IMG/VR virus record: IMGVR_UViG_3300028045_000010
Coordinates: 8,060-72,059 of that record
DNA: 64,000 bases
Origin: a virus
Strand: one strand, 5' to 3'
The position numbers and the translations under genes were made by a program. The notes under the pieces were generated by a model that was not told the origin of the DNA, did not search any database, and was given only the letters and a program-made list of their open reading frames with translations. Of this stretch, positions 1 through 16,818 are shown piece by piece; position 1 is the stretch's first letter, and every line of letters begins with the position of its first letter.

Positions 1-2400
1 GAGGGGAGAGTTAAAATAAACAGAGCTATAAGCGACCTTTTAAGTGGTAGTTCAATAACTCAAGGAGGAACAAACATCAATACCGTTTCTGGCACTACTC
101 TGTTAGTCCCTTTGTATACTATAAATCTAGATGATGATATTTCTCTAAATTCTGTTTCTTCAACTACATTAAGTGGTGGAACACTATATTCTGGTTCAAC
201 TGATTTATCTAGTATATTTCTCACAACAGCAGACGGCAACGATATTACAAGATTATCAGGTGGCACAAATATATCAACTGGTGGCACTGTAAACAATCCT
301 ATTATTAACCTTGATGATGACATTTCATTAAATTCTGTTTCTGCAACGACGCTAAGTGGCGGAACTATATATTCAGGAGGGACAGACCTTTATAATATTT
401 TCTCAACTAGTGGTGGTGGTGGTGGTGGACTTTGGTCTGCCAGTACGGGTACCGATGCTATAATTATGCTTAATGGCGGTAGTATAGCTTCAGGAGTATT
501 AGCTGTTGCCGAAGGAACTAACACAACTGCAAGTGGAGATTATTCTCATGCTGAAGGGCTTAATACAACTGCAACAGGTTCAACAGCACATGCTGAAGGA
601 ACTAACACAACTGCAAGTGGAGATTATTCTCATGCTGAGGGGAGCAGTTCAACTGCTAGTGGATTCGCTTCTCATGCTGAAGGAAGGACTACAGTTGCAA
701 GTGGATTTTATTCTCATTCAGAAGGTGGTACTACAGTTGCAAGTGGAGATTATTCTCATGCTGAGGGAAATGACGCATTAGCTTCTGGCGGCACATCTCA
801 CGCTGAAGGAAGTGGTACAGTTGCAGGTGGAGACGCTTCTCATGCAGAAGGAAAAAGTACAGAAACAATCGGACTCGCTTCTCATGCAGAGGGAGAAAAT
901 ACAATTGCAAAAGGAACGCATTCTCATGCTGAAGGGGTTGACACTAATGCATTTGGAAGCGCCTCCCACGCTGAAGGGAATACGACATCTGCAGATGGGA
1001 ACGACTCCCATGCCGAAGGGCTTGAAACAACTGCAAGTGGAAATCAATCTCATGCTGAAGGTTATAATACAAATGCTAACAAAACTTATTCTCACGCTGA
1101 AGGGAATACGACAACTGCTAGTGGAATCGCTTCTCATGCAGAGGGTACTAGTACAATTGCTAGTGGAGCAAATGCTCATGCAGAAGGGCTTGAAACAACT
1201 GCAATTGGAGCAAATGCTCATGCTGAGGGGGAAACCACAAATGCAAGTGGAGACTCTTCTCATGCTGAAGGGCTTAATACAACTGCAATTGGATTTCCTT
1301 CTCATGCAGAGGGGAAAAACACAAATGCAAGTGGAGACGCTTCTCATGCTGAGGGAAGTGGCACATTAGCTTCTGGCACTACATCTCACGCTGAAGGAAG
1401 TGGTACAGTTGCAGGCGGAACATACTCTCACGCTGAGGGAAGTGGCACATTAGCTTCTGGCAGTACATCTCACGCTGAAGGGCTTAATACAACTGCAGTT
1501 GGAGCAAATGCTCATGCTGAGGGAAGTGGCACATTAGCTTCTGGCAGTACATCTCACGCTGAAGGGCTTAATACAATTGCTAGTGGAGCAAATGCTCATG
1601 CAGAAGGGCGCAGTTCAACTGCTAGTGGAGGAGCTTCTCATGCAGAGGGGAGTGGTGTGGCAAGTGGAGCAAATGCTCATGCTGAGGGGAGCAACACACT
1701 TGCAAGTGGACAGCATTCTCATGCTGAAGGAAGGAGTACAGTTGCAAGTGGATATTATTCTCATGCTGGTGGTAATAGTACAATTGCAAGCGGAGTGTGT
1801 TCTCATGCTGGTGGTAGTGGCTCAACAGTAAGTGGTGAATCATCATTTATACATTCTACAAATTCATTAGTAACGGGTGATAGGAGTGCTGTTTTAGGAG
1901 GTCAAAACATAACTGGAGCTACTGATGACACAGTTTATGTGCCAAATTTGTTTTCCGTTGGAAAAATGACTGGGACTTACAATTATGTAACAGTAGACAA
2001 TTCTATAAGTAGAGAGATAGTTTTAGATGAATCTGTATATCCTAGTAATACTTTGTTCTATATTGATTTGTCAAATGCTACAAATAATATAACATTTCTT
2101 TATGATGGAGTCTTAAAGCCACTAACTTTTGGTACAGAATATGTTTTTGTTATAGGAAGTAGTGTTGGCTCAGGAGCTGAACTTTTCTTTGATGTATCTA
2201 ATGGTGAAAATCCATATTATGGCACTGTTACAGCTAGTGACGGCACTAAGGCTATTAGAAATTATAGTACAATAGAATTTAATTATGATGTATCAAATAC
2301 ACATGTAGGAGCAAAAATAACATTACTATCTGTCGCAGAAGAATATATCAGCTCTATTGTAGATACTACAGGGTTGGTAGCAGGTGTTGTACTTGCTTAA
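1..2400 (+). CDS. tail fibre/adhesin-like protein with ~14-aa (ASGxxSHAEG) beta-roll repeats; 5' end truncated by the window
   Basis: Frame is open from base 1 (EGRVKINRAISD...), upstream of the called TTG at 112. About 30 tandem T(T/A)ASGxxSHAEG repeats resembling YadA-head/Hep_Hag. Confidence 0.8.
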   Translation, partial: EGRVKINRAISDLLSGSSITQGGTNINTVSGTTLLVPLYTINLDDDISLNSVSSTTLSGGTLYSGSTDLSSIFLTTADGNDITRLSGGTNISTGGTVNNPIINLDDDISLNSVSATTLSGGTIYSGGTDLYNIFSTSGGGGGGLWSASTGTDAIIMLNGGSIASGVLAVAEGTNTTASGDYSHAEGLNTTATGSTAHAEGTNTTASGDYSHAEGSSSTASGFASHAEGRTTVASGFYSHSEGGTTVASGDYSHAEGNDALASGGTSHAEGSGTVAGGDASHAEGKSTETIGLASHAEGENTIAKGTHSHAEGVDTNAFGSASHAEGNTTSADGNDSHAEGLETTASGNQSHAEGYNTNANKTYSHAEGNTTTASGIASHAEGTSTIASGANAHAEGLETTAIGANAHAEGETTNASGDSSHAEGLNTTAIGFPSHAEGKNTNASGDASHAEGSGTLASGTTSHAEGSGTVAGGTYSHAEGSGTLASGSTSHAEGLNTTAVGANAHAEGSGTLASGSTSHAEGLNTIASGANAHAEGRSSTASGGASHAEGSGVASGANAHAEGSNTLASGQHSHAEGRSTVASGYYSHAGGNSTIASGVCSHAGGSGSTVSGESSFIHSTNSLVTGDRSAVLGGQNITGATDDTVYVPNLFSVGKMTGTYNYVTVDNSISREIVLDESVYPSNTLFYIDLSNATNNITFLYDGVLKPLTFGTEYVFVIGSSVGSGAELFFDVSNGENPYYGTVTASDGTKAIRNYSTIEFNYDVSNTHVGAKITLLSVAEEYISSIVDTTGLVAGVVLA

Positions 2401-2402
2401 AA

Positions 2403-4343
2403 TTACTCTCGAATAATTTTTAGGTCTCTTACTTCTTTGTATGAAATATCTTTATCTTCAAGGTATTTCATTACTTTCTTTTTCTGTCTATCTGATGCAA
2501 GTTTATTACACACTCCTTTTAATTGTTCAAACTCTAGCCCAGATTGGTTAATATTAAATCCAATCATAAATTCTTTTATTTCATCCAAACCTCTTTCGTC
2601 GCTTTTGTCGTAAATCATCATTAAAATATATCTTCCTTTACTTATTCTCGTTATGTATGAGCCTGCACAATTTTTTAAATCTTTTGCAGCATTTAAAACC
2701 ATTTTTGGAGTTGATAATAGTTTAATTTTTAAATTACCATCATATTCTTCTAGGTATTTAAATTTCTTTGCAAATTTTTTAAATTTTTCATTTTTTTCTT
2801 CATCACTTAACATATTATAATGTTCAACTATTTTATCATGATAAGAATTAATTTCGGATATTGTTTTTATTTTATTAAACTCTTTATTTCTATCCCAATT
2901 TAATCCATTAATCATCCTTATTGAATCATCATAATTATAAAAGCTAAATTGTTCTAAAAAAGAATAGTTTAATTTAACATCATCTAACTTTATTGATTTA
3001 TCTTCTAGGATTGCTGGACTTGAATCTTCTAGCGCATCTATTCCAGCCAACTCTTTCATTCTGCTTAAAGAATAAGATTCTTGAGATATGTTATGTTTTC
3101 TATTTACTAAAAAGTCTAATGTAAGAGGTATTATTTGCCTTAGACTTATCGTATTAATGTCATCTCTAAATTCTATTAATTTAAAAAGAGATATAATATA
3201 CTGTATATCATACTTCATCACTAGACTTATAAGCTCTTCATAAGTTATAAATTTAGTAAATTTTATCAAATTTTTATAGTCATCAAATTTTTCAATTTTA
3301 TTAAATATAAATTTTGATACAGATTTGTTTTTCAAATCTTCTCTAACATTAATTTTACCATCAGATATACTTACCTTACTATCTCCTTTAAATCCCCACC
3401 TTTTTAAGTCATAGAATATGCTTTTAGATTTTCCGTCCTTAGATTTATATATAAACTTTTCATCTTCTAGTGTTTCTGAATCTATTTCTTTTTGTATAAC
3501 TTCATTTTCTAATGAAACTAAAAAATTAAATATATTAATTGGTGATGTTACATTTTCATCTGACAAAACGGATACATTAGGTAATTTACAGCTATACATC
3601 ATATCATATAAAAAAACTGTACCCTTAGTTAATGCTATAGTGGATAGGTTTGAATAGCAAATTATACCAAAAAATATTGTATTTATTTTCATCATAATAT
3701 CCAACCCAGGCTTTCCTATCATTTGACTCATTAAACTTTCTACAATATCCATATTTTTAGAATCAACAACTAGACCAGCTAAATTATTTAAAAAATAATG
3801 TATTTCAACAAGATTATCTAGAACTGACAATTCTTCAGAGTTATAAAACTTTTCTAATATAAACAATAATTCATCTAAATTAAATTCTACTTTTTTGCTT
3901 TTTTCATATGATTTGTAAAAAATAGTTTTTTCTTTTTTGTTAATTGAAATATAAGATTCTAATTCTTTAAAGTTTACATATCTTGACTTCAAGGTGCAAG
4001 ATGATTTTATTTTTTTCTTATATAAAATTAACTCATCATCGTTATTATAACATTTAAAATATCCATAAAAATAAGAGTTTGATTCTTTAATTTTTTTTAG
4101 ATTCTTAGATTTAGAATAATTTATTTTACACTTTGGGCATATAACATTTATTGTAGAATCAAATTTATTCATTATATCCTCATCTAAATCTTCATCTAAT
4201 TCAATAGTTATTTCATCCTTTTTAGCTTTATTGTTTTCTTTAGTTATTTTTTTACCACAAGAACAGAAGTAAACTTCGTCTTCACCTTCTAAGTGATGAA
4301 AGCAAAAATGTTTTTTAATTTCTTTTAAATCTATATCAATCAT
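2403..4343 (-). CDS. PcfJ-domain-like protein with N-terminal Cys/His Zn sites
   Basis: C-terminal AAKDLKNCAGSY...QLKGVCN resembles the PcfJ motif; CFHH, CSCG and CPKC near the N-terminus. Confidence 0.55.
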   Translation of the reverse strand: MIDIDLKEIKKHFCFHHLEGEDEVYFCSCGKKITKENNKAKKDEITIELDEDLDEDIMNKFDSTINVICPKCKINYSKSKNLKKIKESNSYFYGYFKCYNNDDELILYKKKIKSSCTLKSRYVNFKELESYISINKKEKTIFYKSYEKSKKVEFNLDELLFILEKFYNSEELSVLDNLVEIHYFLNNLAGLVVDSKNMDIVESLMSQMIGKPGLDIMMKINTIFFGIICYSNLSTIALTKGTVFLYDMMYSCKLPNVSVLSDENVTSPINIFNFLVSLENEVIQKEIDSETLEDEKFIYKSKDGKSKSIFYDLKRWGFKGDSKVSISDGKINVREDLKNKSVSKFIFNKIEKFDDYKNLIKFTKFITYEELISLVMKYDIQYIISLFKLIEFRDDINTISLRQIIPLTLDFLVNRKHNISQESYSLSRMKELAGIDALEDSSPAILEDKSIKLDDVKLNYSFLEQFSFYNYDDSIRMINGLNWDRNKEFNKIKTISEINSYHDKIVEHYNMLSDEEKNEKFKKFAKKFKYLEEYDGNLKIKLLSTPKMVLNAAKDLKNCAGSYITRISKGRYILMMIYDKSDERGLDEIKEFMIGFNINQSGLEFEQLKGVCNKLASDRQKKKVMKYLEDKDISYKEVRDLKIIRE

Positions 4344-4497
4344 ATTTTAAATATTTTTCTATTATAACTTTTTTTCTATATACTTTTTTTTCTCTTTTAA
4401 TTTTAAGCATCCACAAATACTCCATTTCTCTTGATTGAATCAGTTCAATATTTGATTCAATCTTTGAATAATTATGATATAATTCTTTATTATCCAT
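4336..4497 (-). CDS. 53-aa small protein carrying the YKRxLLIE-like motif (VYRKKVIIEKY)
   Basis: Translated by hand (MDNKELYH...KKVYRKKVIIEKYLKYD); fills the gap between the flanking genes and overlaps the next start. Confidence 0.6.
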   Translation of the reverse strand: MDNKELYHNYSKIESNIELIQSREMEYLWMLKIKREKKVYRKKVIIEKYLKYD

Positions 4498-6799: not shown

Positions 6800-7102
6800 T
6801 TATTTAGATTTTATATCTTCAATACTTTTATAAACACTTTCCATAAACCAATAACTATTTGTGTGAAATTTTAAATAATTATAAGAGAGTATTGTTTGTT
6901 GAATAAACACTAATAGTATTAGTCCAAAAAGAATGGGAGGAATTATTCCTAAAAGCGGAAGGAAAAATGTATATAATGTAATTGCAAGAAAAAATATTAA
7001 ACTAATTATAGAGAATTTTAGTTTACTTTTATATTTTAGAACTAAATTTATTTTGTCTTGTCTTTGTTCTTTTTTTAATTGTATAGTTTTTAAATTTTCC
7101 AT
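6800..7102 (-). CDS. small two-TM membrane protein
   Basis: Two hydrophobic segments; similar layout and C-terminus to 8092..8475. Confidence 0.65.
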   Translation of the reverse strand: MENLKTIQLKKEQRQDKINLVLKYKSKLKFSIISLIFFLAITLYTFFLPLLGIIPPILFGLILLVFIQQTILSYNYLKFHTNSYWFMESVYKSIEDIKSK

Positions 7103-7238
7103 AATAATATTAATTTAATTTATATGTTATTTTAATAAATATATATATTAAACGAATATTAAACAAAAACATTACATAATAATGAAAATAATTTTTTTAT
7201 AACTATTTAATATTATAAAACATTAAAAATTCATAGAA

Positions 7239-8027
7239 ATGAAAATTACAACATCTGAATTAAAACAAATAATAAAAGAAGAAGCTGAAAGGTTTGCTAA
7301 AATAAAAACTTTATCAATAGAAAAAAATAAAATAGAAAATCAAATCAATGAAATGTACAATGAAGATGTTGATGAAAATGAATCTGTTGAAGAATCTGTT
7401 GAAGAATCTGTTGAAGAATCTATGGAAGAAGGAATTGAAGGTATGGAGCTAACAGAGCCAGTATCAGTAGAAAGTGGTGAAGAAAGTGGTGAAGATAATG
7501 TAGATGAATCTAATAGTATAGAAGAAGGTCAGATTACTGACACTATTAAGGATTGGTTTAGCAAAGAAGGAACTAATGTAGAAGATGCGTTAAAAAAATT
7601 ACAAGAACATGTAATTAAAATGATAGAATCTCATGACATGCCAAATGAAGCAAAAGAGAAATTGAAAAAGGGAGCTGAAGGATTGGCTAAGAAATTATAT
7701 GACAAGGCTTCTGGTGCAATTTATGACTATGAACCATACATTCATTATTATCCAGCTAAGAAAGCTGAGGGGAGCCGAAAAGGTAGAGAAGAGCAGTGGC
7801 AATTTCGAGTTAGGAAAGCAGAGCCAAAAAGTCCTTGGTTAAAAGCTTTACAAATTATGGTTGGTGCAGCCTCAGACGACCTTAAAGGTAGGGGTTTGAA
7901 TTACGCAGAAGGTGTAGAAGAAGGAAATATTCAAGAGGCCGTTAAGTCAGAAGTTAAAAAAGCAATTAAAGCTGAAAAACTTAAAAGCAGAGCTCAAGAA
8001 ATTATAAAAGAAATGAAATCTTTATAG
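7239..8027 (+). CDS. putative head-internal acidic protein with MKITxxEL..IKEEA leader
   Basis: Leader matches 5699; EESV repeats. Confidence 0.6.
   Translation: MKITTSELKQIIKEEAERFAKIKTLSIEKNKIENQINEMYNEDVDENESVEESVEESVEESMEEGIEGMELTEPVSVESGEESGEDNVDESNSIEEGQITDTIKDWFSKEGTNVEDALKKLQEHVIKMIESHDMPNEAKEKLKKGAEGLAKKLYDKASGAIYDYEPYIHYYPAKKAEGSRKGREEQWQFRVRKAEPKSPWLKALQIMVGAASDDLKGRGLNYAEGVEEGNIQEAVKSEVKKAIKAEKLKSRAQEIIKEMKSL
7381..7421 (+). repeat. 12-bp tandem repeat (gaagaatctgtt) encoding EESV
   Basis: About 3.5 copies visible in the sequence. Confidence 0.8.
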
Positions 8028-8040
8028 TACAATCTAAATT

Positions 8041-8085
8041 ATAAATAAAAAAGCCCAAATTAATAGTTTGGGCTTTTTTATTTAT
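8041..8085. terminator. bidirectional intrinsic terminator
   Basis: ataaataaaaaagcccaaa-ttaatag-tttgggcttttttatttat. Confidence 0.8.
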
Positions 8086-8091
8086 AATTAA

Positions 8092-8475
8092 TTAATCATA
8101 TTTTTCAATATCTTTTTCCATACTATTAAAAGTTATATTTGAAATAATTTGCATCTTTTTTTGTATAAAAACTCCTCTACACCATTTTATTGTTAAATAT
8201 ACAAACATTAAAGATATTGGTAATAAAATGTAGAAAGATACATTACATATATTTTCTCCAAAAATATTATGACTAAAGTCTAATGTTGAAGAATAAAGCA
8301 TAAATGAAAAAAACAATAAATTAATAGAAACTTCCTTTAGAATTCTTTTTGCTCTTTTTTCTGAATCTTTAAAAGATGAAATACAATTATCTTTAAATTC
8401 TTTTCTTATTTCTTTTTTATCTTTTTCCATAATATTATATTTTATTGTTATAATAAATAAACGTAAATTATACAA
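8092..8475 (-). CDS. small two-TM membrane protein (probable start MEKDK, ~8430)
   Basis: Two hydrophobic stretches; last gene of the 9693-8092 operon. Confidence 0.6.
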   Translation of the reverse strand: MYNLRLFIITIKYNIMEKDKKEIRKEFKDNCISSFKDSEKRAKRILKEVSINLLFFSFMLYSSTLDFSHNIFGENICNVSFYILLPISLMFVYLTIKWCRGVFIQKKMQIISNITFNSMEKDIEKYD

Positions 8476-8480
8476 AAATA

Positions 8481-8753
8481 TTACAAATCACCGAAAATAT
8501 TTCTCATTTGTTCTGCACTCTCTATCTGTATAGGCTCACTAAGTGGACCTACTGCTCTAGAGATGATTCCTATAGTCGCATTATGAGTTGAAGGGCTTAC
8601 AACTAAATCATAACTTATAACACTAATATCATTTTCTCTAATATAAACTCCAGGACTAATAAATTTTTGTGGTGAATATAGTTCAATTAATAACTTCCTT
8701 TTATATACTGTTGATTGAAATTTTAAATGTTTTATCATATTACTCTTGCTCAT
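8481..8753 (-). CDS. mini-protein: YKRKLLIE motif + N-terminal fragment of a gp18-type tail sheath
   Basis: FISPGVYIREND...GPLSEPIQIESAEQMRNIFG resembles the conserved sheath N-terminus (T4 gp18 LSPGIELKE...WGPAFQIKQVTNEVDLVNTFG). Confidence 0.75.
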   Translation of the reverse strand: MSKSNMIKHLKFQSTVYKRKLLIELYSPQKFISPGVYIRENDISVISYDLVVSPSTHNATIGIISRAVGPLSEPIQIESAEQMRNIFGDL

Positions 8754-8760
8754 GGTTCAA

Positions 8761-9102
8761 TCAAATTTTATCTAGAAAAGAATCTTGAAATCTACGTCCA
8801 CCTCTCCTTCTACTCCTTCTACTCTTAGGTTTTTTATAAGTTTCAATTAATAACACCCTCTTATATAAATCTTCATGATAATGGAGTATACCAGCTGGCA
8901 GTTCCATTGGCTGAACAGAAACTAAATCATTTCCTATAGTATTGGCCATCACTCGTCTTGCTACAGGAAATGTAAATGCTCCAACCTCAATGCAAAAGCT
9001 TTTCTTTTCAATAAGAAGCTCTCTCTTATATATGTTTTCATTTTTTGGATGAACTAATTCATACCACCTAGACAATGCTTTATGTACTGACAAATCACTC
9101 AA
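8761..9102 (-). CDS. mini-protein: gp23-type major capsid fragment (Gol-equivalent region) flanked by two YKRxLLIE motifs, Arg-rich tail
   Basis: AFTFPVARRVMANTIGNDLVSVQPMELPAG resembles T4 gp23 AVMGMVRRAIPNLIAFDICGVQPMNSPTG. Confidence 0.75.
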   Translation of the reverse strand: MSDLSVHKALSRWYELVHPKNENIYKRELLIEKKSFCIEVGAFTFPVARRVMANTIGNDLVSVQPMELPAGILHYHEDLYKRVLLIETYKKPKSRRSRRRGGRRFQDSFLDKI

Positions 9103-9368
9103 TTAATTATTTTTATAAGTCCTGATTTTACACATTTTTCTATATTTTCAAAAGTCATAAAGTTATATCTATGAGAAACTGGTGGGCTGCTTGTAAACCA
9201 GGAATTATAACAACCTTCATTTTCAGGAGGGTTTACATCTTCACTATAGAAATATACCATATTCCTATTGATTTTCCATATGTAGAATTTTTTATTTAAA
9301 ATATTATTATAAATTCCACTAAATGTAATAAATGGAAAATATTCTATTATTAAATTTCTTTTACTCAT
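9099..9368 (-). CDS. mini-protein with N-terminal KRNLIIEY motif; rest unassigned
   Basis: Overlaps both neighbouring ORFs; motif variant at the N-terminus. Confidence 0.6.
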   Translation of the reverse strand: MSKRNLIIEYFPFITFSGIYNNILNKKFYIWKINRNMVYFYSEDVNPPENEGCYNSWFTSSPPVSHRYNFMTFENIEKCVKSGLIKIIN

Positions 9369-9693
9369 TCTGTAAGTTTATTAAATTACCTAAGATTTCT
9401 CTATCAATTTCTTGAGCTAATTGTCTTGATAGCATATCTGTTAGTTCAGCTTCAACATCAAATGGATTAAATTTTTTTGGTACATACTTTTCAATTAATA
9501 ATATTTTTTTATATACATTCTCAGGCTCTTCAGGCTCATAACTATGAGTATAGTAGTCTAAATCTTGAGCAAGTTCAGGAGTCCAAGAACATCTTAAACG
9601 TCTAGTTTCTCCTGTTACTTGAACAGAAGTTAGTTTTAAAGAAATCTCCCTAACCTTTTCTATTAAAAGATTTCTTTTAAATACAGTATCCAT
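9361..9693 (-). CDS. mini-protein: gp23-type major capsid fragment interrupted by a YKKILLIEKY motif
   Basis: RRLRCSWTPELAQDL...DVEAELTDMLSRQLAQEIDREIL resembles T4 gp23 RQLKAAYSIELAQDL...DADAELSGILATEIMLEINREVV. Confidence 0.8.
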   Translation of the reverse strand: MDTVFKRNLLIEKVREISLKLTSVQVTGETRRLRCSWTPELAQDLDYYTHSYEPEEPENVYKKILLIEKYVPKKFNPFDVEAELTDMLSRQLAQEIDREILGNLINLQNE

Positions 9694-9767
9694 TTATGCA
9701 ATATAGGAAAATAATAATAAATATAAATAACAATTTTTAATGATATTTATATATAAATAATATTTAT

Positions 9768-10343
9768 ATGAATTCTTTAGAAATAATAGGAAATGAAATA
9801 TTTAACAAATTTCCTTTCACAGATTTGCCAGAAACTAGAAAAGAGGTTGATTGGAGCAATAGAGATGTAAAAGGTTGGGGCAATATTAATGTGCCAAGCA
9901 TATCTGATGGCGATGCTTCTATGACAATTTTTTCTAAAAAAGACTTAGAAGATTATATAGAAAATTTTAAAAATAAATTTTCAGAAGAGCCAATATTTTT
10001 ACTAGACAATGACGCAGATTGGTTTGATAAAGTTAAAATAACAAATAACGATTTTAATGAATGGAAGAACAATTACATTAATGCAAAAGGTGAAACTCTT
10101 AAAAAGTGGGGAACTACAAACGAAAACTTAGAAATAAGAAAAGTAGTAAGAGAAGTTATATCAGAAGCTTTTGAAGATTATGACATGTCTTTTTTAGAGA
10201 AATTAAAATTAAAACTAAAAGGAGTTTCTGAAGAAAAGTTAAAATATAATATTGAAAACGATTTACCTTGGGATTGGAAAGGTTCTAAAGAAGGTTTTTA
10301 CGAAAAAATGGAGCCTAGAAGAAATAATGCTGGCTCTAACTAA
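9768..10343 (+). CDS. hypothetical protein with internal EIRKVVREVISE motif
   Basis: ORF preceded by TATTTAT. Confidence 0.65.
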   Translation: MNSLEIIGNEIFNKFPFTDLPETRKEVDWSNRDVKGWGNINVPSISDGDASMTIFSKKDLEDYIENFKNKFSEEPIFLLDNDADWFDKVKITNNDFNEWKNNYINAKGETLKKWGTTNENLEIRKVVREVISEAFEDYDMSFLEKLKLKLKGVSEEKLKYNIENDLPWDWKGSKEGFYEKMEPRRNNAGSN

Positions 10344-10348
10344 AAAAA

Positions 10349-10627
10349 GTGTCTATGAAAGATAAAGTTAAACGTATATTTTTACAAACATTTGCAACTC
10401 ATATAGGCAGAATAATGTTTGGTGCACTATTGTCAATAGTAGGCGGTATTATGACTCCTAACGGAACTATTGGAGAGTTAATTTACAATTACGATGAGGG
10501 TGGATTTTGGAAAGTGCTGTTTTATATAGGAGTGATTTTATTTACTGGTGAATGTCTTTTGTTTATAGCGTATGGTCTAATCATAAATCCAATCAAAAGT
10601 CTTATAAAGAAAATAAAGAATAAATAA
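10349..10627 (+). CDS. small two-TM membrane protein
   Basis: Two hydrophobic helices and a basic C-terminus. Confidence 0.65.
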   Translation: MSMKDKVKRIFLQTFATHIGRIMFGALLSIVGGIMTPNGTIGELIYNYDEGGFWKVLFYIGVILFTGECLLFIAYGLIINPIKSLIKKIKNK

Positions 10628-10654
10628 TATACATTTATTTAATATTTTAAAAAA

Positions 10655-10889
10655 CACCAAAGACGAGCGTAACCCAAATTCTGTTTCAATTTCATCATTT
10701 ATCTATTGGCCACTTACCCGACCCTTAGCATTGCTCACCTGCAGGTCTGTTTGTGTTGCATCCTCGGAAGTGCAAACGTGCGCTTATGAACTTAATCACT
10801 TGCCCCTCACTCCTTCCTTAAGCAAAGATGTTTGGAGTTTCCTCTCTTCCCAAATATGGGTTAGAGCGATGAATCCTCTTTCTTTGATG
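10655..10889 (-). ncRNA. rnpB: minimal RNase P RNA (~235 nt)
   Basis: Minus strand has GAGGAAACUCCAAAC and AUAGAUAAAUGA...ACAGAAUUUGGGUUAC. P4 (AAC-U-CCAAA/UUUGGGUU with bulged U), P1 (CAUCAAAGA/UCUUUGGUG), P2 (UUCAUC/GAUGAA), P3 and P5 all pair. Confidence 0.85.
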
Positions 10890-11163
10890 TTTTTTCTGTT
10901 AAAAGTTTTTTTTCATATCTATCATAATGACCTGCAAAAAGAAGTTCTAATTTGGCCATTTCTTCTATACTAAAATCATAACTGCCAGATAGCATGTGTT
11001 TTGATTTACTTTTTGTAAATCCTACTTTTTTAGACAAGTCTTCTGTTGTCATTTTCTTCTTGGAAAGATATGCCCTTATATTATCAGCAATATTAGCAGA
11101 GTAAATGTGAAATCTAACTTGCCAATCAGGTGCTTGATTTAATAAGTTTCTATCTTCTTTCAT
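10861..11163 (-). CDS. XRE/Cro-like HTH protein with C-terminal YEKKLLTEK motif variant
   Basis: NIRAYLSKKKMTTEDLSKKVGFTKS...HMLSG. Confidence 0.65.
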   Translation of the reverse strand: MKEDRNLLNQAPDWQVRFHIYSANIADNIRAYLSKKKMTTEDLSKKVGFTKSKSKHMLSGSYDFSIEEMAKLELLFAGHYDRYEKKLLTEKTSKKEDSSL

Positions 11164-11167
11164 TTCA

Positions 11168-11566
11168 TTAGTTTAGAATAGATTTAATAATTTCAGAAAC
11201 AACTTTATTGTCAGCTTGACCTTTAAAGTTCTTATTAAATTCTCCCATTATTTGTCCTATGTTATTTAGCCCATTATGCATATAATTAGTTACAATTTCC
11301 TTAATTCTTTCTTCATCCATTTGTGCAGGCAAATAAGGAGCAATATATTCTAATTCTTTCTTAGACTCTTCTGTGCCTGTTTGTTTTAAAGACTTTTCCA
11401 TTTTCTTTAAAATTTTTAAAACATTTTCATCAGTTGATTCTGTTCCTCTTCCCTCTTGTAATTGAATTTCTCCCCTTACAACTCCAAGAAAATTTTTTTT
11501 ATCTAAATTTTTAGCCTTAAAAGCATCCATAAAATCTTTAGATATTCTATTTTTTAAATTACTCAT
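11168..11566 (-). CDS. YqeY/GatB-domain tRNA-binding-like protein
   Basis: LKNRISKDFMDAFKAK...YLPAQMDEE...GQIMG...GQADNKVVS. Confidence 0.8.
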   Translation of the reverse strand: MSNLKNRISKDFMDAFKAKNLDKKNFLGVVRGEIQLQEGRGTESTDENVLKILKKMEKSLKQTGTEESKKELEYIAPYLPAQMDEERIKEIVTNYMHNGLNNIGQIMGEFNKNFKGQADNKVVSEIIKSILN

Positions 11567-11647
11567 TATTATTTTTTTTCTTTAACGTAATATAATACAA
11601 AAAATTACAAATTAAATAAAAAACAAAATATTTTAATATTTATTGTT

Positions 11648-12070
11648 ATGAATGAAATAAGACAACTAATAAGAGAAGCTTTAGATTCAAAAGAAGATAG
11701 ATATGTTACAGAAGACGTTTCTTTAAGTTTGAGTTTAAACAATATATTAGGACCAGATGATTATTTTGATGAAAGTAAAGCTTCTATAGAGTGGAGTTTA
11801 TATACTGATGAAAAAAGCTATGGAATACGTACCATAAAGCCTATGATACATAAAATAATTTTAAAATCTAAAATATGGAGAGAAGACACAGAGGAGTTAG
11901 ATGAGTTTGAAAAAGTGTATGATTTTGAACATGGAATTGTAGATGGAGGTATTTTCGAGGAGTTTAAGATAAACATTGAAAAAAATAATAATGCTGACTC
12001 ATTTTTTCCAACAGAAATATCAATATATGAAGATTTTAATTCTATTGACATAGAATTTCAGTATCCGTAA
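11648..12070 (+). CDS. acidic hypothetical protein with MNEIRQLIRE leader
   Basis: TATTTAT immediately upstream. Confidence 0.65.
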   Translation: MNEIRQLIREALDSKEDRYVTEDVSLSLSLNNILGPDDYFDESKASIEWSLYTDEKSYGIRTIKPMIHKIILKSKIWREDTEELDEFEKVYDFEHGIVDGGIFEEFKINIEKNNNADSFFPTEISIYEDFNSIDIEFQYP

Positions 12071-12084
12071 ATAAAATTTATAAA

Positions 12085-12183
12085 ATGAAATTAGTAAAAG
12101 CCAACTATAAAGACCCCAATTCTGACCATAATGATGACGAATGGGACGATGAAGACTGGTTTAATGAACATCCGATATTTTAA
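12085..12183 (+). CDS. 32-aa acidic peptide MKLVKANYKDPNSDHNDDEWDDEDWFNEHPIF
   Basis: Translated by hand; A-rich start context; followed by a structured RNA/terminator. Confidence 0.5.
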   Translation: MKLVKANYKDPNSDHNDDEWDDEDWFNEHPIF

Positions 12184-12186
12184 AAT

Positions 12187-12255
12187 ACGGTTAGGACCCG
12201 TTATAGTTTAGGCTATATTTGCCATCCAAAATTCGCTACTTTGGATGGTTTTTTT
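12187..12255 (+). terminator. three tandem hairpins ending in an intrinsic terminator
   Basis: acgg-ttaggac-ccgt; tatagt-ttag-gctata; ccatccaaa-attcgctac-tttggatgg followed by a T-run. Confidence 0.65.
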
Positions 12256-12417
12256 GTTTAAAAAACTTTATATATCAACAAAAAGCACAATCTTATTAAC
12301 ATAAAATCAATATAAAACTTCCATATAGAGTCTGTGTAAAAGATTGTTTAAAAGTGTAAATTGTATAAATATTTTCGTCAATTATTTATTACATAAAACA
12401 ATTAAAAACTAAAAATT

Positions 12418-12819
12418 ATGAAAAAATTTATTTTAACATTTGCTATTGCAACTATAGCCTTATGTGGATTCTCTCAAGATAAGGGAGTTACTCAATTAAG
12501 CGTATTACACGTATCATCATCAGATGTTACCATCAACGTTTCTTCACCTTCATTAACTTATTATTTTATAGATAATATGGGTCTTACTTTAGGTATTGCA
12601 AACTTTAATGATATCAACTTAGGTGCACGATACTATGTAAAAGACAACAATTTTGCCTATGCTGGTTATGGGACAAATTCTGAATCTTTGAATTTAGGAT
12701 TAGGAAAATCTTTTGGATGGGGAGACCATATACAAATAGAGCCTAGACTTAATTTTACTGACGTTATCAGTGATGACAGAAACCTAAATTTAAGCGTTCA
12801 TTTAAATATGAAATTTTAA
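12418..12819 (+). CDS. small outer-membrane beta-barrel protein (Bacteroidetes type)
   Basis: Signal peptide MKKFILTFAIATIALCGFSQ, alternating beta-strand pattern (LGARYY, IEPRLNF), C-terminal Phe. Confidence 0.7.
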   Translation: MKKFILTFAIATIALCGFSQDKGVTQLSVLHVSSSDVTINVSSPSLTYYFIDNMGLTLGIANFNDINLGARYYVKDNNFAYAGYGTNSESLNLGLGKSFGWGDHIQIEPRLNFTDVISDDRNLNLSVHLNMKF

Positions 12820-12836
12820 TTAAATACAATTTTATA

Positions 12837-12868
12837 AAACCACTTAAAAATAAATTTTGGGTGGTTTT
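12837..12868 (+). terminator. intrinsic terminator
   Basis: aaaccactta...tgggtggtttt hairpin after the OMP gene. Confidence 0.55.
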
Positions 12869-12918
12869 ATTTAAAAGTTTAATATTTATTACAAACTAAC
12901 AATTAAAAATAAAAAACA

Positions 12919-13137
12919 ATGAAAAAATTTATTTCAGATTTATTTAAAGAATCTACAGATGGAAAAACATCTTCAAAAAAGTTTTGGGGAAATGTGTTTT
13001 TAACACTATGCGGTCTAACTTATGTATTAGACGGATTTCACTTCTATGCAGTAAGTATGGATTTATTTAACCCAACATTAATCGCAGGATGTGCCTTAAT
13101 AGGATTAAGAACTGTCGGAGGAATGTTTAAAAGTTAA
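12919..13137 (+). CDS. small two-TM protein (holin-like)
   Basis: GKTSSKKFWG followed by two TM segments. Confidence 0.55.
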   Translation: MKKFISDLFKESTDGKTSSKKFWGNVFLTLCGLTYVLDGFHFYAVSMDLFNPTLIAGCALIGLRTVGGMFKS

Positions 13138-13170
13138 TAATTTAACACAAAACAATAAACAAAAAACAAC

Positions 13171-13392
13171 ATGGAAATTTTAAACACAGTAAAATCCTGG
13201 GTAACAGGAATCAGTCAAGTATTAGTAGCCTTAGTAGGTTTGGCAGTTTTAGCAGAAATTGCTTTCGGCCAATTCTTAGGTGAAGTAAGCGTAATTAACA
13301 ACATTATTGATGTTGTATCAAGATTTGGAGAAAGAGGATTTGTAGGACTAGTAGCTCTATTTGTCGTTTTTCACTTTACTAACAAAAAGTAA
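13171..13392 (+). CDS. small two-TM protein (holin-like)
   Basis: Two TM segments; GFVGLVAL. Confidence 0.55.
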   Translation: MEILNTVKSWVTGISQVLVALVGLAVLAEIAFGQFLGEVSVINNIIDVVSRFGERGFVGLVALFVVFHFTNKK

Positions 13393-13401
13393 TAAACAAT
13401 T

Positions 13402-13440
13402 AAAATAAAAGGAACCGTAATTATAGTTCCTTTTATTTTT
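13402..13440. terminator. bidirectional terminator
   Basis: aaaataaaaggaac...gttccttttatttt between convergent genes. Confidence 0.65.
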
Positions 13441-13459
13441 TTTATATTTTCATATAGAC

Positions 13460-13954
13460 TTATGTTACTATTCCAACATAAACATTCCAAGATTCATGAA
13501 CTTTTTTAAATTTTTCAACAAAATATAAATAAGTTGGTCTAAAAGGCTCATGACTCATATTCATACCAGCTTCTTCTGGTGTCTTGTTGTCTTTTTTTGT
13601 ATTACAAGAACTACAGCAACTAACTAAATTAATCCACCTATTTTTCCCTCCTCTAGACTTAGGCATAACATGGTCAATGGTTAAATTTTCTTTATCACCA
13701 CAATATATACACTTATAATCATCTCTTCTAAAAATGTTTTCTCTAGATAGATTAACTTTTCTAAAAGGAACAGAAATGTATCTTAATAACCTTATTACAG
13801 TAGGTCTTTTATAATTTTTTCTAGAAGTAACTATAGGCATTTCAGATAAGTGCTCTACTATTTCTGCCTTACCTTTAAACACTAAATTAAATCCTCTTAT
13901 TAAAGTTGTAACGTTTATCGGCTGATAAGCGTTGTTCAATACCAATACTTGCAT
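13460..13954 (-). CDS. HNH endonuclease (McrA/HNH_5-like)
   Basis: VLVLNNAYQP...RENIFRRDDYKCIYCG...LTIDHVMPKSRGG...WINLVSCCSSCN. Confidence 0.9.
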   Translation of the reverse strand: MQVLVLNNAYQPINVTTLIRGFNLVFKGKAEIVEHLSEMPIVTSRKNYKRPTVIRLLRYISVPFRKVNLSRENIFRRDDYKCIYCGDKENLTIDHVMPKSRGGKNRWINLVSCCSSCNTKKDNKTPEEAGMNMSHEPFRPTYLYFVEKFKKVHESWNVYVGIVT

Positions 13955-14008
13955 ACCTAATCTTTTTTATAAATATAACTTACTTTTTACTGTTTTAAAA
14001 ATTTTTTG

Positions 14009-14087
14009 TTGCGATTTCAAGATTCGAACTTGACAGGGGGATATCTCCCAAAAAGGCTCATGAGACCTTCCTTACACCATTATCGCA
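14009..14087 (-). tRNA. atypical tRNA(CAT): D-arm nearly absent, long variable arm
   Basis: Acceptor UGCGAU/AUCGCA; anticodon arm AAGGU-CUCAUGA-GCCUU; T arm UCAAG-UUCGAAU-CUUGA. Confidence 0.55.
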
Positions 14088-14094
14088 ATTTTAG

Positions 14095-14167
<73 letters not shown>

Positions 14168-14182
14168 ATATATTTTACACTG

Positions 14183-14256
14183 TTGCGATGGAGAGAATTG
14201 AACTCCCAGCCTCAGGGTTATGATTCCTGCGCTCTAACCAATTGAGCTACATCGCA
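14183..14256 (-). tRNA. tRNA(CAT), elongator Met or Ile2
   Basis: Cloverleaf UGCGAUG/CAUCGCA, loop AUCAUAA. Confidence 0.8.
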
Positions 14257-14264
14257 ATAAAGTA

Positions 14265-14350
14265 ATGCTATGTGTGGCTCCATCGGTCTCTGCTCCTTTA
14301 CCGCAGATTTAAATAACTGGGGCAGACATTGTACCACATACATATAGCAT
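14265..14350 (-). ncRNA. unassigned rod-like structured RNA inside the tRNA array
   Basis: Ends pair (AUGCUAU...GUGG / CCAC...AUAGCAU), with inner GUCUGC/GCAG-GAC pairing. Confidence 0.5.
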
Positions 14351-14356
14351 CACTAG

Positions 14357-14429
14357 TGGGAATGGATGGAATCGAACCATCGACACATGGATTTTCAGTC
14401 CATTGCTCTACCAACTGAGCTACATCCCC
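14357..14429 (-). tRNA. tRNA-Phe(GAA)
   Basis: Canonical cloverleaf; AUGGA-CUGAAAA-UCCAU. Confidence 0.95.
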
Positions 14430-14434
14430 ATTTG

Positions 14435-14521
14435 TAGGAGTAGAGGGATTCGAACCCACGTTAACCAATAAAGGCCTCTTGCATGTAAAACAAGCGCTCT
14501 AACCAACTGAGCTATACTCCT
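14435..14521 (-). tRNA. tRNA-Val(TAC) with expanded variable arm
   Basis: CUUGU-UUUACAU-GCAAG; 18-nt variable region AGGCCUUUAUUGGUUAAC. Confidence 0.8.
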
Positions 14522-14525
14522 ATTG

Positions 14526-14598
14526 CGCTCCCTCTTGGATTTGAACCAAGGACCCCTCGCTTAACAGGCGAACGCTCTAACCACTGAGCTAAAGAAGC
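14526..14598 (-). tRNA. tRNA-Asn(GTT)
   Basis: Cloverleaf; loop CUGUUAA; G73. Confidence 0.9.
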
Positions 14599-14599
14599 A

Positions 14600-14674
14600 T
14601 GGCGGACGGTGGGGGATTTGAACCCCGACCTTTTGCGTGACAGGCAAATATGCAACCATTACACCACACCATCC
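14600..14674 (-). tRNA. tRNA-Asp(GTC), CCA encoded
   Basis: UUUGC-CUGUCAC-GCAAA; ends GCCA. Confidence 0.9.
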
Positions 14675-14681
14675 ATAATTG

Positions 14682-14756
14682 GGTAGGAAATGAGATTCGA
14701 ACTCACGACCCTCGACACCACAAATCGATGCTCTAACCAACTGAGCTATTCCTACC
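14682..14756 (-). tRNA. tRNA-His(GTG) with G-1
   Basis: UCGAU-UUGUGGU-GUCGA; G-1:C73. Confidence 0.9.
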
Positions 14757-14762
14757 ATATAT

Positions 14763-14981
14763 GTCTACGGAAATTATACTAGTAATTTCGTGCTCTACCA
14801 ATTGAGCTATCTCCCCATTTTATATGCATTCACGTATGTATAATATACCCGTTTGGGTATAATTTTATATGCATTCACGTATAATATACCCGTTTGGGTA
14901 TATTTTGTGGGGAGAGTAGGATTCGAACCTACACACCGTCGTTTACAGCGAATAGAAGTATCTAAATATATAGCCGTAGAC
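14763..14981 (-). ncRNA. permuted tRNA-Tyr(GTA)-like RNA / YrlA-type Y RNA
   Basis: The 3' tRNA half (14908-14951) lies upstream of the 5' half (14789-14816); termini GUCUACGG/CCGUAGAC pair. Confidence 0.75.
14817..14902. repeat. two ~41-45 bp direct repeats, each with an atatacccgtttgggtata hairpin
   Basis: attttatatgcattcacgta(tgta)taatatacccgtttgggtata occurs twice. Confidence 0.85.
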
Positions 14982-15016
14982 AATATTTTAATTTCAAAGA
15001 ACGTTTTCTTTTTCTG

Positions 15017-15089
15017 TCCCCCCGACAAGATTCGAACTTGTGACTTTCCGCTTAAAAGGCGGAAGCTCTACCAGCTGAGCTACGAGGGA
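15017..15089 (-). tRNA. tRNA-Lys(TTT)
   Basis: UCCGC-CUUUUAA-GCGGA. Confidence 0.9.
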
Positions 15090-15095
15090 ATGTTG

Positions 15096-15178
15096 AGGAG
15101 AAAGAGAGATTCGAACTCTCGCAACATTTCTGTCGTACACCTTAGCAGGGTGCTGCATTACCGCTCTGCCACTTCTCC
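15096..15178 (-). tRNA. tRNA-Ser(GCT)
   Basis: GCACC-CUGCUAA-GGUGU; long variable arm. Confidence 0.9.
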
Positions 15179-15180
15179 AA

Positions 15181-15393
15181 CTATATTACCAAATTTATTA
15201 ATACATAAACGTTAACATATTTTCCTTCTGTTATAAATTTTAATTCATTATTATCATATCCTTTTTTTATAGCCATTTGTTCTAATATATAATAGTAATC
15301 ATCAAAAAATTCTTCAAAATCTTCTCTGACAATTCTTTTTAAAAAGATTAATCTTTCTTCATCTGGTATTTCATTTATTTTCACTTTAGTCAT
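15181..15393 (-). CDS. hypothetical protein within the tRNA array
   Basis: ORF fills the gap between two tRNAs. Confidence 0.6.
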   Translation of the reverse strand: MTKVKINEIPDEERLIFLKRIVREDFEEFFDDYYYILEQMAIKKGYDNNELKFITEGKYVNVYVLINLVI

Positions 15394-15413
15394 AACAAAT
15401 ATTTATTTAGTTC

Positions 15414-15504
15414 TGGCGGAAAGTGGAGGAACCGACCCCCAGACAACTTAATGCCCTACAGTTTTCAAGACTGCCCGCCCTCCAATAGAGCTGCTTCACT
15501 TTCC
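15414..15504 (-). tRNA. tRNA-Ser(TGA) with 8/4 acceptor/T fold, CCA encoded
   Basis: GGAAAGUG/CACUUUCC-G-CCA; GCAGU-CUUGAAA-ACUGU; 4-bp T stem. Confidence 0.75.
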
Positions 15505-15529
15505 GTATTTTAATATTTTAAATAACACT

Positions 15530-16048
15530 TTATTCTTTTTTCACTTTCCACATTGGAACAAATCCTGCATATCCTTCATCTATAACATTTGCCCAATGGT
15601 CAAGATATCCATCTGCTCCAAATTGTTGTTGGCCTGGAGCTCGGAACTCTTGTCTTTTTTCATTCCACTGTGCTATTCCACCAAATCTTGCAACATTTTT
15701 TGCACCTTCTTCACAATCGTACCAAGCTCCATCTTCTAACTCTTCTTTTGGAATTGCTTTTTTTAATAATTCCAAATCTCTCTCTCTAGTCCATTCGATA
15801 CCTTTTATTCTCTCTTCACCGTTATACCTTTTTCTTTCATACTCTAAGATTTTATCAATCTTATCTTTATCTTTTATATCCTTTTCAAGCTTTTCTCTTT
15901 TATTTTTCCAAAACTCTTCTTCTTCCCACTCAATATAAAGTTTTACTAGTTTTACAATTCTTTCATTTTGTTCTTTACCGTATCTAGCTCCATAATTTGC
16001 TTTTACTAATCTATCGTACCAATCTTTATATTTTCCTTTAAATTCCAT
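15530..16048 (-). CDS. hypothetical protein, first gene after the attenuator
   Basis: 172-aa charged ORF. Confidence 0.7.
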   Translation of the reverse strand: MEFKGKYKDWYDRLVKANYGARYGKEQNERIVKLVKLYIEWEEEEFWKNKREKLEKDIKDKDKIDKILEYERKRYNGEERIKGIEWTRERDLELLKKAIPKEELEDGAWYDCEEGAKNVARFGGIAQWNEKRQEFRAPGQQQFGADGYLDHWANVIDEGYAGFVPMWKVKKE

Positions 16049-16066
16049 TTTTCAATTTTTAAGCAT

Positions 16067-16149
16067 AAAAAAACCCGAATCATTTTAAGTGATTCGGGTG
16101 TGTATAACGTTAGTTATTTTATGCGCTTAACTTACATCATAGCACACCC
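16067..16149 (-). promoter_or_regulatory. terminator/antiterminator (attenuator)
   Basis: Terminator ACCCGAAUCA...UGAUUCGGGU-U7; upstream GGGUGUG (16143-16149) is complementary to CACACCC overlapping the terminator 5' arm. Confidence 0.65.
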
Positions 16150-16249
16150 TTTTAAATCTTGATTTATTATCATCATGACTCATCGTTATGTTTCCAAAGA
16201 CTTTCGAATTGGAACAATAATTTGCGATATGTGTACTTGTAAGTTGCAA
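16127..16249 (-). CDS. 40-aa putative leader peptide (TTG start)
   Basis: MQLTSTHIANYCSNSKVFGNITMSHDDNKSRFKRVCYDVS; A-rich start context; overlaps the antiterminator strand. Confidence 0.5.
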   Translation of the reverse strand: MQLTSTHIANYCSNSKVFGNITMSHDDNKSRFKRVCYDVS

Positions 16250-16302
16250 AAGTTTTTAATTTTTATTATTACTAAATATATTCTATTTTTCTAAATCTGA
16301 TA

Positions 16303-16310
16303 CAAATATA
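16303..16310 (-). promoter_or_regulatory. Bacteroidetes-type -7 promoter element (TATATTTG)
   Basis: caaatata on the + strand; similar motifs at ~5585, 16772 and 30983. Confidence 0.6.
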
Positions 16311-16380
16311 AAATTTTATTTTTAATATTCAATAATTATAACGTTTTATTTTTTGAAATGTTACAGTTTTTTAAAAAAAC

Positions 16381-16767: not shown

Positions 16768-16818
16768 AATGCAAATATAATAAAAATTTGAATATTTATT
16801 AGAATAAACATATTTTTA

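Follow-up and report, generated by a model that had tools for sequence, protein, structure and literature searches.

The IMG/VR virus record IMGVR_UViG_3300028045_000010 is a 72,059-nt contig with a CheckV completeness of 22%, and the 64,000-nt stretch formed by its bases 8060–72059, referred to here as the window, was analysed; coordinates are those of the window. Given its gene content (helicase, primase-like, SbcC-like, endolysin, fibre/appendage-like and baseplate wedge genes, together with nine tRNA genes), the contig is taken to be a fragment of a large myovirus. At positions 8481–9693 it carries an accessory operon of translationally coupled mini-genes that belongs to a clade of uncultured marine giant myoviruses, and each mini-gene consists of short pieces of virion proteins (capsid N-arm, capsid E-loop strand plus spine helix, or about the first 55 residues of the tail sheath) placed behind a common peptide tag. 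The four tightly packed open reading frames (ORFs) of 89–113 aa lie where a sequence-only reading of the window had put them, all on the minus strand, and a fifth gene closes the operon:

9361..9693, minus strand: ORF A, 110 aa, ATG start; N-terminal tag, gp23 E-loop strand and helix, an inserted second tag, spine-helix piece
9099..9368, minus strand: ORF B, 89 aa, ATG start; tag SKRNLIIE at residues 2–9 (9342–9365)
8761..9102, minus strand: ORF C, 113 aa, TTG start; leader, tag, gp23 N-arm (Gol-region) piece, second tag, arginine-rich tail
8481..8753, minus strand: ORF D, 90 aa, ATG start; leader, tag (8682–8705, residues 17–24), sheath N-terminal piece (8490–8663, residues 31–88)
8092..8430 (alternative start 8475), minus strand: ORF E, which ends the operon and encodes a small protein with two hydrophobic segments

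ORFs A and B overlap by 8 nt and B and C by 4 nt, and 7 nt separate C from D. Chance alone would not be expected to leave frames of this length open at the local GC content of about 0.26. Read-through or another genetic code was considered for A–D and rejected, as further in-frame stops lie behind their stop codons.

The tag reads, with its flanks, (E-N-V/I)-Y-K-R/K-x-L-L-I-E-(K-Y), is 8–13 residues long and ends in LLIE, LIIE or LLVE. A search of the whole 72,059-nt contig, translated in six frames, with a strict form, [YFS]K[RK]x[LI][LI]IE, gives six matches, every one of them in A–D, so the one or two copies per ORF that the sequence-only reading had noticed are confined to these genes. Besides the copies in B and D given above, these and two looser copies are located as follows:

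9658..9681, minus strand: tag copy A1, FKRNLLIE, residues 5–12 of A
9484..9522, minus strand: tag copy A2 with flanks, ENVYKKILLIEKY, residues 58–70 of A
9007..9030, minus strand: tag copy C1, YKRELLIE, residues 25–32 of C
8842..8865, minus strand: tag copy C2, YKRVLLIE, residues 80–87 of C
10894..10917, minus strand: looser copy YEKKLLTE, near the C-terminus of a Cro/C1-type helix-turn-helix (HTH)-like ORF at 10861..11163 (HTH_26, E 2.5e-4)
4357..4380, minus strand: looser copy YRKKVIIE, near the C-terminus of a 53-aa ORF at 4336..4497

The looser pattern gives eight matches, whereas 50 shuffles yielded 0.38 on average and never more than 2. The 53-aa ORF matches no Pfam family; HTH homologues in the related contigs L084, L085 and L099 (see below) retain the tag, and the homologue in L098 is without it. 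The HTH ORF (10861–11163, minus strand) also matches the PADLOC candidate families PDC-M64B/C (E 1.6e-5). At the DNA level, a degenerate tag pattern has 13 matches across the 355,450 nt of five clade contigs, of which 12 lie inside cassettes, and the reversed pattern finds none; a plus-strand match to the degenerate pattern lies at window 6880–6903 (G000 14939–14962). A DNA-level repeat or promoter was rejected as the nature of the element: the flanks of the six copies are unrelated, their codons differ, and all eight looser copies are in frame on one strand. The unrelated flanks and differing codons indicate that selection acts on the peptide.

Within the four products the first tag ends, as L-I-E or I-I-E, at residue 12 of A, 9 of B, 32 of C and 24 of D. 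Of five tag copies measured, four are better kept than any other segment, with mean majority fractions of 0.81–0.90 vs. 0.73–0.77 for the virion-like pieces; copy A2 (0.90) is the top segment of A, and the N-terminal copy of A reaches 0.71. An N-terminal tag is present in 18/21 close rows of the alignment of A homologues (directly after the start Met in most A homologues), as well as right after the start Met in a relative of B (P0161) and in P0036. The A2 tag is present in 21/21 close (group-1) rows, and the internal tag is absent from 10/10 distant rows.

Pieces of the major capsid protein are evident in two of the ORFs by comparison with the Pfam family Gp23 (PF07068; 376 profile positions, curated cut-off 24.4 bits) and with T4 gp23 from NC_000866. 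Both A (E 1.3e-13, 51.6 bits) and C (E 5.5e-6, 26.5 bits; residues 45–80, profile positions 9–44) score above the cut-off, and both also match the PHROG family ‘major head protein’. The pieces and the tail of C are placed as follows:

9556..9660, minus strand: gp23-like segment of A, residues 12–46 (Pfam Gp23 positions 129–163; residues 16–45 correspond to T4 gp23 249–278)
9373..9468, minus strand: gp23-like segment of A, residues 76–107, spine helix (residues 76–101 correspond to T4 gp23 282–307; Gp23 positions about 167–198)
8872..8988, minus strand: gp23 N-arm piece of C, residues 39–77 (T4 gp23 90–122 and a few residues beyond)
8764..8841, minus strand: arginine-rich tail of C, residues 88–113 (R-run kept in 4/4 C homologues)

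In T4 terms, C holds the N-arm and A the returning strand of the E loop, the next helix and the spine helix; the insertion point of the T4 I domain falls in the gap that separates the C piece from the A piece. The two gp23 pieces of A are separated, relative to T4 gp23 and to the tag-less group-2 proteins described below, by a 27-residue insert that holds the second tag. Residues 39–71 of C align with T4 gp23 90–122 at 36% identity over 33 residues (pairwise E 1e-5), and at the level of this alignment C corresponds to the Gol region, the residue limits of which we take to be about 93–122. A profile made from 86 capsid N-termini matches C at E 2.9e-13 and its homologues at 2.9e-15 to 1.6e-10.

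The sheath match of D is real but weak: residues 25–89 resemble tail-sheath N-termini (PHROG tail sheath, E 0.12), and the pairwise E value with T4 gp18 residues 3–55 is 0.043. A tblastn search of D against the phage collection hit 29 records at E ≤ 0.1; among the 25 matches listed, 20 are tail sheath and five are unannotated, one of the latter being the N-terminus of an 824-aa ORF. D has no conserved sheath C-terminal domain, only the N-terminal match (E 0.01–0.12). These comparisons thus bear out the capsid pieces in two ORFs and, weakly, the sheath N-terminus in D that had been seen in the bare sequence, along with the insertion of a tag into the capsid segment of A. They also agree that none of these ORFs is long enough for a capsid or sheath fold, profile coverage being partial for A, C and D; with 110 and 113 residues, vs. 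521 for T4 gp23, A and C are pieces and not capsid proteins.

ORF B matches no Pfam or PHROG family at E ≤ 1. Among 1.84 billion representative proteins it has three matches: a 94% identical twin, the 93-aa relative P0161 (42% identity) and a repeat protein, the last taken as chance. Structural comparison adds little. PDB matches of C (best E 0.0034, to an unrelated viral glycoprotein) were disregarded as chance, and a PDB sequence search of A returned only weak matches to T4 gp24 (E 0.23–0.25) and one glycosyltransferase (E 1.1). AlphaFold2 (AF2) modelled only helix 78–108 of A, with a mean predicted local distance difference test (pLDDT) score of 53.5 and both tags unstructured, and gave no usable fold for a tag-less fused relative (pLDDT 36.8).

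The cassette is common in seawater metagenomes. ORF A has 39 small homologues at E ≤ 0.01, 22 of which are 57–99% identical to it, and one close homologue lies on a 390,165-nt contig. The alignment comprises A and 30 of the 39 (leaving out P0001, which is 99% identical, and P0009, P0026, P0031, P0032, P0034, P0035, P0037 and P0039). In eight of its ten distant rows (123–146 aa) the A-like pieces run straight into a C-like piece in one chain. Five further IMG/VR contigs carry the cassette between the same neighbours, namely a YqeY-like gene, an HTH-like gene and a divergent gene of ~190–240 aa. Its content is A-B-C-D in the window, A-D in L084, and A-C-D in L085, L096 and L099; L098 has A and a hybrid in which the leader and tag of C run into the body of D. 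Among these six contigs B is thus confined to the window (absent from 5/6) and C is absent from 2/6. The position of ORF E is kept in 6/6, with the window copy only 22–25% identical to those of L084 and L085. Fused variants include P0004 (A joined to a truncated D), P0008 (A joined to the tail of C) and P0022, in which the N-terminus of a tail protein (phrog_350, E 7.7e-12) is fused to the second half of A, P0022 coming from a 1409-nt contig for which chimeric assembly is possible.

From the cassette contents and the hybrid and fused forms it follows that modules are lost, fused and swapped at the tag. Near-identical DNA was found in sequencing runs of 14 studies, and contigs of three seawater runs were compared; one contig in X4, probably a diverged relative, joins tag-adjacent parts with skips of 183, 130 and 557 nt. 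Scans of IMG/VR for a complete relative, by single protein, alignment and DNA pattern, gave only the six fragment contigs, and a helicase scan for a complete relative found nothing. In one metagenome scan ordinary capsid genes drowned out other matches, and the single contig recovered was already known. The GenBank phage collection yielded only capsid and sheath matches, at less than 60% identity.

Measured by the method of Nei and Gojobori, the ratio of non-synonymous to synonymous substitution (dN/dS) is 0.29–0.76 for A, 0.55 for C and 0.68–1.06 for D, vs. 0.08–0.09 for the YqeY-like neighbour; the peak of 1.06 is that of D between L084 and L085. Synonymous divergence in the same pairs is 0.13–0.92 in the cassette vs. 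1.06–2.56 in the YqeY-like neighbour (window 11168–11566), for which exchange between lineages or RNA constraint is a possible cause. Among the seawater contigs, A–D contain 23 variant places, of which 7 are synonymous, 16 non-synonymous and none a stop. The sole pair of indels, an insertion and a deletion 6 nt apart in one contig, restores the frame, and the start codon of C changes from TTG to ATG in two of the runs. Frames stay open across 25–40% protein divergence, including those of all 21 small A homologues. A–D are therefore kept as coding sequence under weak or changing constraint. Neutral evolution, which the sequence-only reading had named as telling against its proposal of a modular cassette of virion piece plus common tag, is in part found for D (dN/dS 0.7–1.06), whereas the frames of A–D do not decay; the cassette itself stands, being retained as coding sequence in the relatives with its modules exchanged at the tag.

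The pieces are old. The best of 444 longer A homologues are ordinary gp23-type capsid proteins of 500–560 aa with 33–46% identity, and because no full-length capsid protein exceeds 46%, recent debris, including a recent pseudogene of the phage's own capsid gene, is rejected as their source. This identity range and the intact frames of the 21 small A homologues speak against simple pseudogene decay, as had been argued from the sequence. No longer protein among 922 candidates matched C at E ≤ 0.1, hence a capsid protein carrying the tag was not found. The tag may nonetheless be of capsid origin. By eye and in a MAFFT alignment the leader of C and the capsid propeptide have W and E-N in common; the first tag of C ends 13 residues before a conserved F-P-x-x-R-x-V block, and full-length gp23-type capsid proteins have M-L-N-E, L-L-K-E or L-I-K-E 15–16 residues before the same block. 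These likenesses, which have no statistical support, suggest that the tag descends from the end of a capsid propeptide.

A literature search found no account of mini-genes built from capsid or sheath pieces that have a tag in common, in agreement with the novelty claimed earlier, and the nearest comparisons are all partial. A second group of mini-capsid proteins (group 2: P0023–P0039 and L186), likewise undescribed, is of similar size (~97–173 aa) and is made of the same gp23 pieces, the aligned 135–146-aa forms having them in the order A then C (N-arm and first E-loop strand after). Unlike A and C, these proteins form one chain with no internal tag, and their gp23 pieces are closer to real capsid proteins (44–69% identity); the L186 gene is on its own among unrelated ORFs and has no sheath piece next to it. 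In the T4 record NC_000866, alt.-1 and alt.-2 are annotated as having arisen by an old duplication of the beginning of gene alt. Like the mini-genes here, these small ORFs stem from the N-terminal region of a gene for a packaged virion protein and have starts and stops of their own. They result, however, from one duplication next to the parent gene, share no tag, show no modular shuffling and are not known to be conserved across a clade.

The closest known system is that of the T-even internal proteins, since the tag ends in hydrophobic-L-x-E and is N-terminal in A and B. In T4, the prohead protease removes 65 residues of gp23 and 10 of gp24 (PMC9958956), and the capsid-targeting sequence (CTS) is described as an N-terminal leader of about 10 aa that is cut once (10.1101/2021.01.19.427310; PMC5694885). 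The internal proteins are basic and non-essential, and foreign proteins given the CTS leader are loaded into heads (PMC3012670, PMC5694885, 10.1101/2021.01.19.427310); across T-even phages they are highly diverse, the CTS alone being conserved (PMC3012670). In IPI, IPII, IPIII and Alt, and in the processed prohead-core proteins gp67 and gp68, as in the cassette, a short conserved leader ending in hydrophobic-x-E precedes unrelated, fast-changing small proteins whose genes lie outside the head gene block, whose cargo is basic and which may have several cut sites per substrate. In the T4 sequences, FLTE of gp23 and LLRE of gp24 stand before the cuts and gp67 contains FLIE, and the tags of A–D end in L/I-x-E in the same manner. 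The conserved leader likewise stands before diverse cargo, cassette content differing among the six contigs and hybrids joining at the tag. The arginine-rich tail behind the second tag of C fits the ‘highly basic’ character of T4 internal proteins. The tag differs from the CTS in being longer (Y-K-R-x-L-L-I-E-K-Y) and in not being restricted to N-termini: it is also found inside proteins, with at most two copies in each, and close to two C-termini. The cargo differs as well, being capsid, sheath and tail pieces instead of enzymes or inhibitors.

We therefore favour, tentatively, a reading in which the tag serves both as a prohead-protease site of the T4 type and as a capsid-targeting leader, the products resembling T4 internal proteins with virion-piece cargo. 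What points to a processing and loading signal is the L-L-I-E end, the N-terminal position, the presence of a tag before every module and its unstructured state in the AF2 model. The hydrophobic-L-x-E end would be the cut site of the prohead protease, and the N-terminal tag would act like the T4 CTS, so that the mini-proteins join the prohead core. Cleavage after each tag would then give peptides of 40–80 residues and an arginine-rich peptide of about 26 residues. The released peptides may exit the head; alternatively, like T4 internal proteins, they may remain with the DNA and be carried into the next cell. For their action there, the most attractive guess is the blocking of host sensors of capsid or sheath. 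The fuller proposal of a trigger-mimic counter-defence, in which released capsid and sheath copies, perhaps shipped in the head, would occupy or desensitise sensors or EF-Tu before the virion proteins appear, seems to us rather unlikely.

Several observations weigh against head processing and loading. Y-K-R and the flanks make the tag longer than a minimal L/I-x-E site, which suggests another or an additional recogniser. The two looser copies lie only 3–11 residues from the C-termini of the HTH-like protein and the 53-aa ORF, where cleavage would be of little use, and an HTH regulator would be unexpected as a head protein. In 4/6 relatives a sigma-70-like promoter (TTGACT-17-TATCTT) precedes A, which would mean early expression, and the operon sits among tRNA, HTH and YqeY-like genes in surroundings that resemble early genes. 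No prohead protease, capsid or scaffold gene was found on any of the five clade contigs searched, which are 18–27% complete: the gp21-type Peptidase_S77 family (PF03420) matches 0/5 of them at E ≤ 1, and full-length Gp23 is absent from the same contigs, an absence that carries no weight at this completeness. The sheath-derived module is weakly constrained, as its dN/dS shows, and has lost the sheath start S-P-G-V-Y in 4/6 contigs. As to the capsid-propeptide link, only the N-arm of C is covered by its hidden Markov model (HMM) alignment to the 86 capsid N-termini, leader and tag not being significantly aligned, and in ungapped register the E of the C tag falls five residues after that of the capsid L-N-E.

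Under a rival explanation, that of cytoplasmic decoys or antagonists, the pieces would copy the best conserved, and hence most readily sensed, surfaces of capsid and sheath and would bind abortive-infection sensors or their cofactors (EF-Tu for C) without triggering them. Here the tag would be a docking, stabilising or turnover peptide instead of a cut site, a role that suits its C-terminal copies better, and delivery in the head would be compatible with it. The Gol-area alignment of C argues for this explanation: the 29-residue Gol region, in the first quarter of gp23 and called its most conserved part, binds EF-Tu and activates Lit, and mutagenesis has shown 13 residues of a 20-residue core to be important (PMC3014915). 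Structural proteins are common triggers of defence systems (PMC13728456; 10.64898/2026.01.04.697583), and an N-terminal fragment of a tail protein triggers the TAC system better than the whole protein does (10.1101/2024.02.24.581848). Fast evolution, variable content and a synonymous divergence low relative to the flank are also typical of arms-race accessory genes. Yet Gol acts within nascent full-length gp23, whereas C is a separate tagged mini-protein matching the conserved N-terminal quarter that holds Gol (PMC3014915) at only 36% identity over 33 residues, and the expected effect of a free Gol-like peptide on a Lit-type protease is activation, not blocking. The capsid pieces are only 33–46% identical to any full-length capsid protein found, and D is without the conserved sheath start in 4/6 contigs. 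PADLOC gave no family match for A, C, D or E and only a weak DndH match (E 0.015) for B, and there is no confident fold for A or its tag-less relatives. On balance decoys appear somewhat unlikely.

Assembly modulators, by which free copies of the N-arm, the E loop with spine helix and the sheath arm, all of which extend into adjacent subunits, would cap or poison lattice growth, are in our judgement unlikely. Such copies might act on a co-infecting relative, thereby excluding it, or on proteins of the phage itself, so that polyheads or polysheaths do not form too early. The choice of pieces is suggestive, with C ending and A beginning at the two sides of the I-domain insertion point and tag-less relatives carrying A-like and C-like pieces, likewise ordered, on a single chain; sheath subunits, for their part, link by exchanged terminal arms. 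The N-terminal regions of T4 gp23 are N-arms with extensive contacts to neighbours, and it is the E loop that carries the inserted I domain (PMC9958956). Against an essential role of this kind speak the absence of C from 2/6 and of B from 5/6 contigs and the high dN/dS; AF2 was not confident for A (53.5) or the fused form (36.8), and the tag, the best-kept part, is left without a reason.

We consider it quite unlikely that the genes are slowly decaying relics, that is, old partial duplications shuffled at a short repeat and without a function of their own, for which T4 alt.-1 and alt.-2 offer an annotated precedent. The dN/dS of up to 1.06 for D (L084 vs. L085), the excess of non-synonymous (16) over synonymous (7) places among the seawater contigs and the truncated or fused variants P0004, P0008 and L098 would fit such a fate. 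Decay is difficult to reconcile with frames that stay open over 25–40% protein divergence at a GC content of ~0.26 (21 small A homologues open), with the lack of stops in 23 variant places and the frame-restoring indel pair, with the switch of the C start from TTG to ATG, or with a tag kept as protein while its codons change, in a position kept in 6/6 contigs.

Most improbable is a chaperone handle, in which the tag would bind a DnaK/SecB-type chaperone or another hub protein that holds the unfolded pieces: the aromatic and basic residues around a Leu-rich core, the largely unfolded state predicted for A and its fused relatives and the C-terminal copies of the tag are in keeping with it, but the invariant Glu would be unfavourable for DnaK and SecB binding and no chaperone gene was seen beside the cassette among Pfam and PHROG matches. 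Its precedent, a SecB-like chaperone that reads short linear motifs in an antitoxin tail and a phage tail protein, involves ChAD motifs (an aromatic residue preceded by Asp, then Ser/Thr) that are unlike the tag (10.1101/2024.02.24.581848).

The operon is bounded by the following elements:

9694..9768, minus strand: operon upstream region, common with the divergent gene; two TATAAATA elements at 9744–9751 and 9761–9768
8040..8086 (strand not given): terminator-like hairpin of 20 pairs that closes the operon

TATAAATA occurs 41 times in the window vs. 19.9 expected, a count reached by 0/100 shuffles, and an ATAAATA element lies upstream of A in 6/6 relatives. Baseplate and fibre-like genes lie 30–50 kb from the operon; there is no head or sheath gene on the contig, and the tail-sheath profiles PF04984 and PF17482 have no match on it. 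Just downstream of the operon, window 7239–8027 (plus strand) encodes a very acidic protein with short tandem ESVEE repeats, and an acidic repeat protein (ENEGxEE; L084 11150–11920 and L085 11330–12190, both minus strand) is found downstream of the operon in all relatives, with a varying number of repeats. The nine-tRNA array (14094–15178, minus strand; Met twice, Phe, Val, Asn, Asp, His, Lys and Ser) was found in agreement by ARAGORN and Rfam. An RNase P RNA at 10651–10893 was not detected, the search of 7000–17000 at the Rfam gathering threshold returning tRNAs only, although a minimal form could score below that threshold. Elsewhere in the window, an ORF open at its 5′ end (1–2400, plus strand) has a GC content of 0.44 vs. 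~0.28 for the genome and matches phrog_25468, a family of unknown function, in seven stretches (E 1.2e-93). The phage also encodes a PcfJ-like protein (2403–4343, minus strand, E 6e-10) and the YqeY/GatB-like neighbour of the operon (11168–11566, minus strand, E 7.6e-19).

If the tag is both a loading and a cutting signal, the principle of the T4 internal proteins, a constant leader with freely changing cargo, would extend far beyond the T-even phages, and the cargo could then consist of recycled pieces of the virion's own proteins. Should the pieces act on host sensors or on the assembly of rivals, they would form a new class of counter-defence or interference, and the Gol-like piece would, if this is true, offer a direct handle on why the Gol region binds EF-Tu. 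Either way, the tag offers a compact and testable candidate signal for loading foreign proteins into the heads of giant phages.

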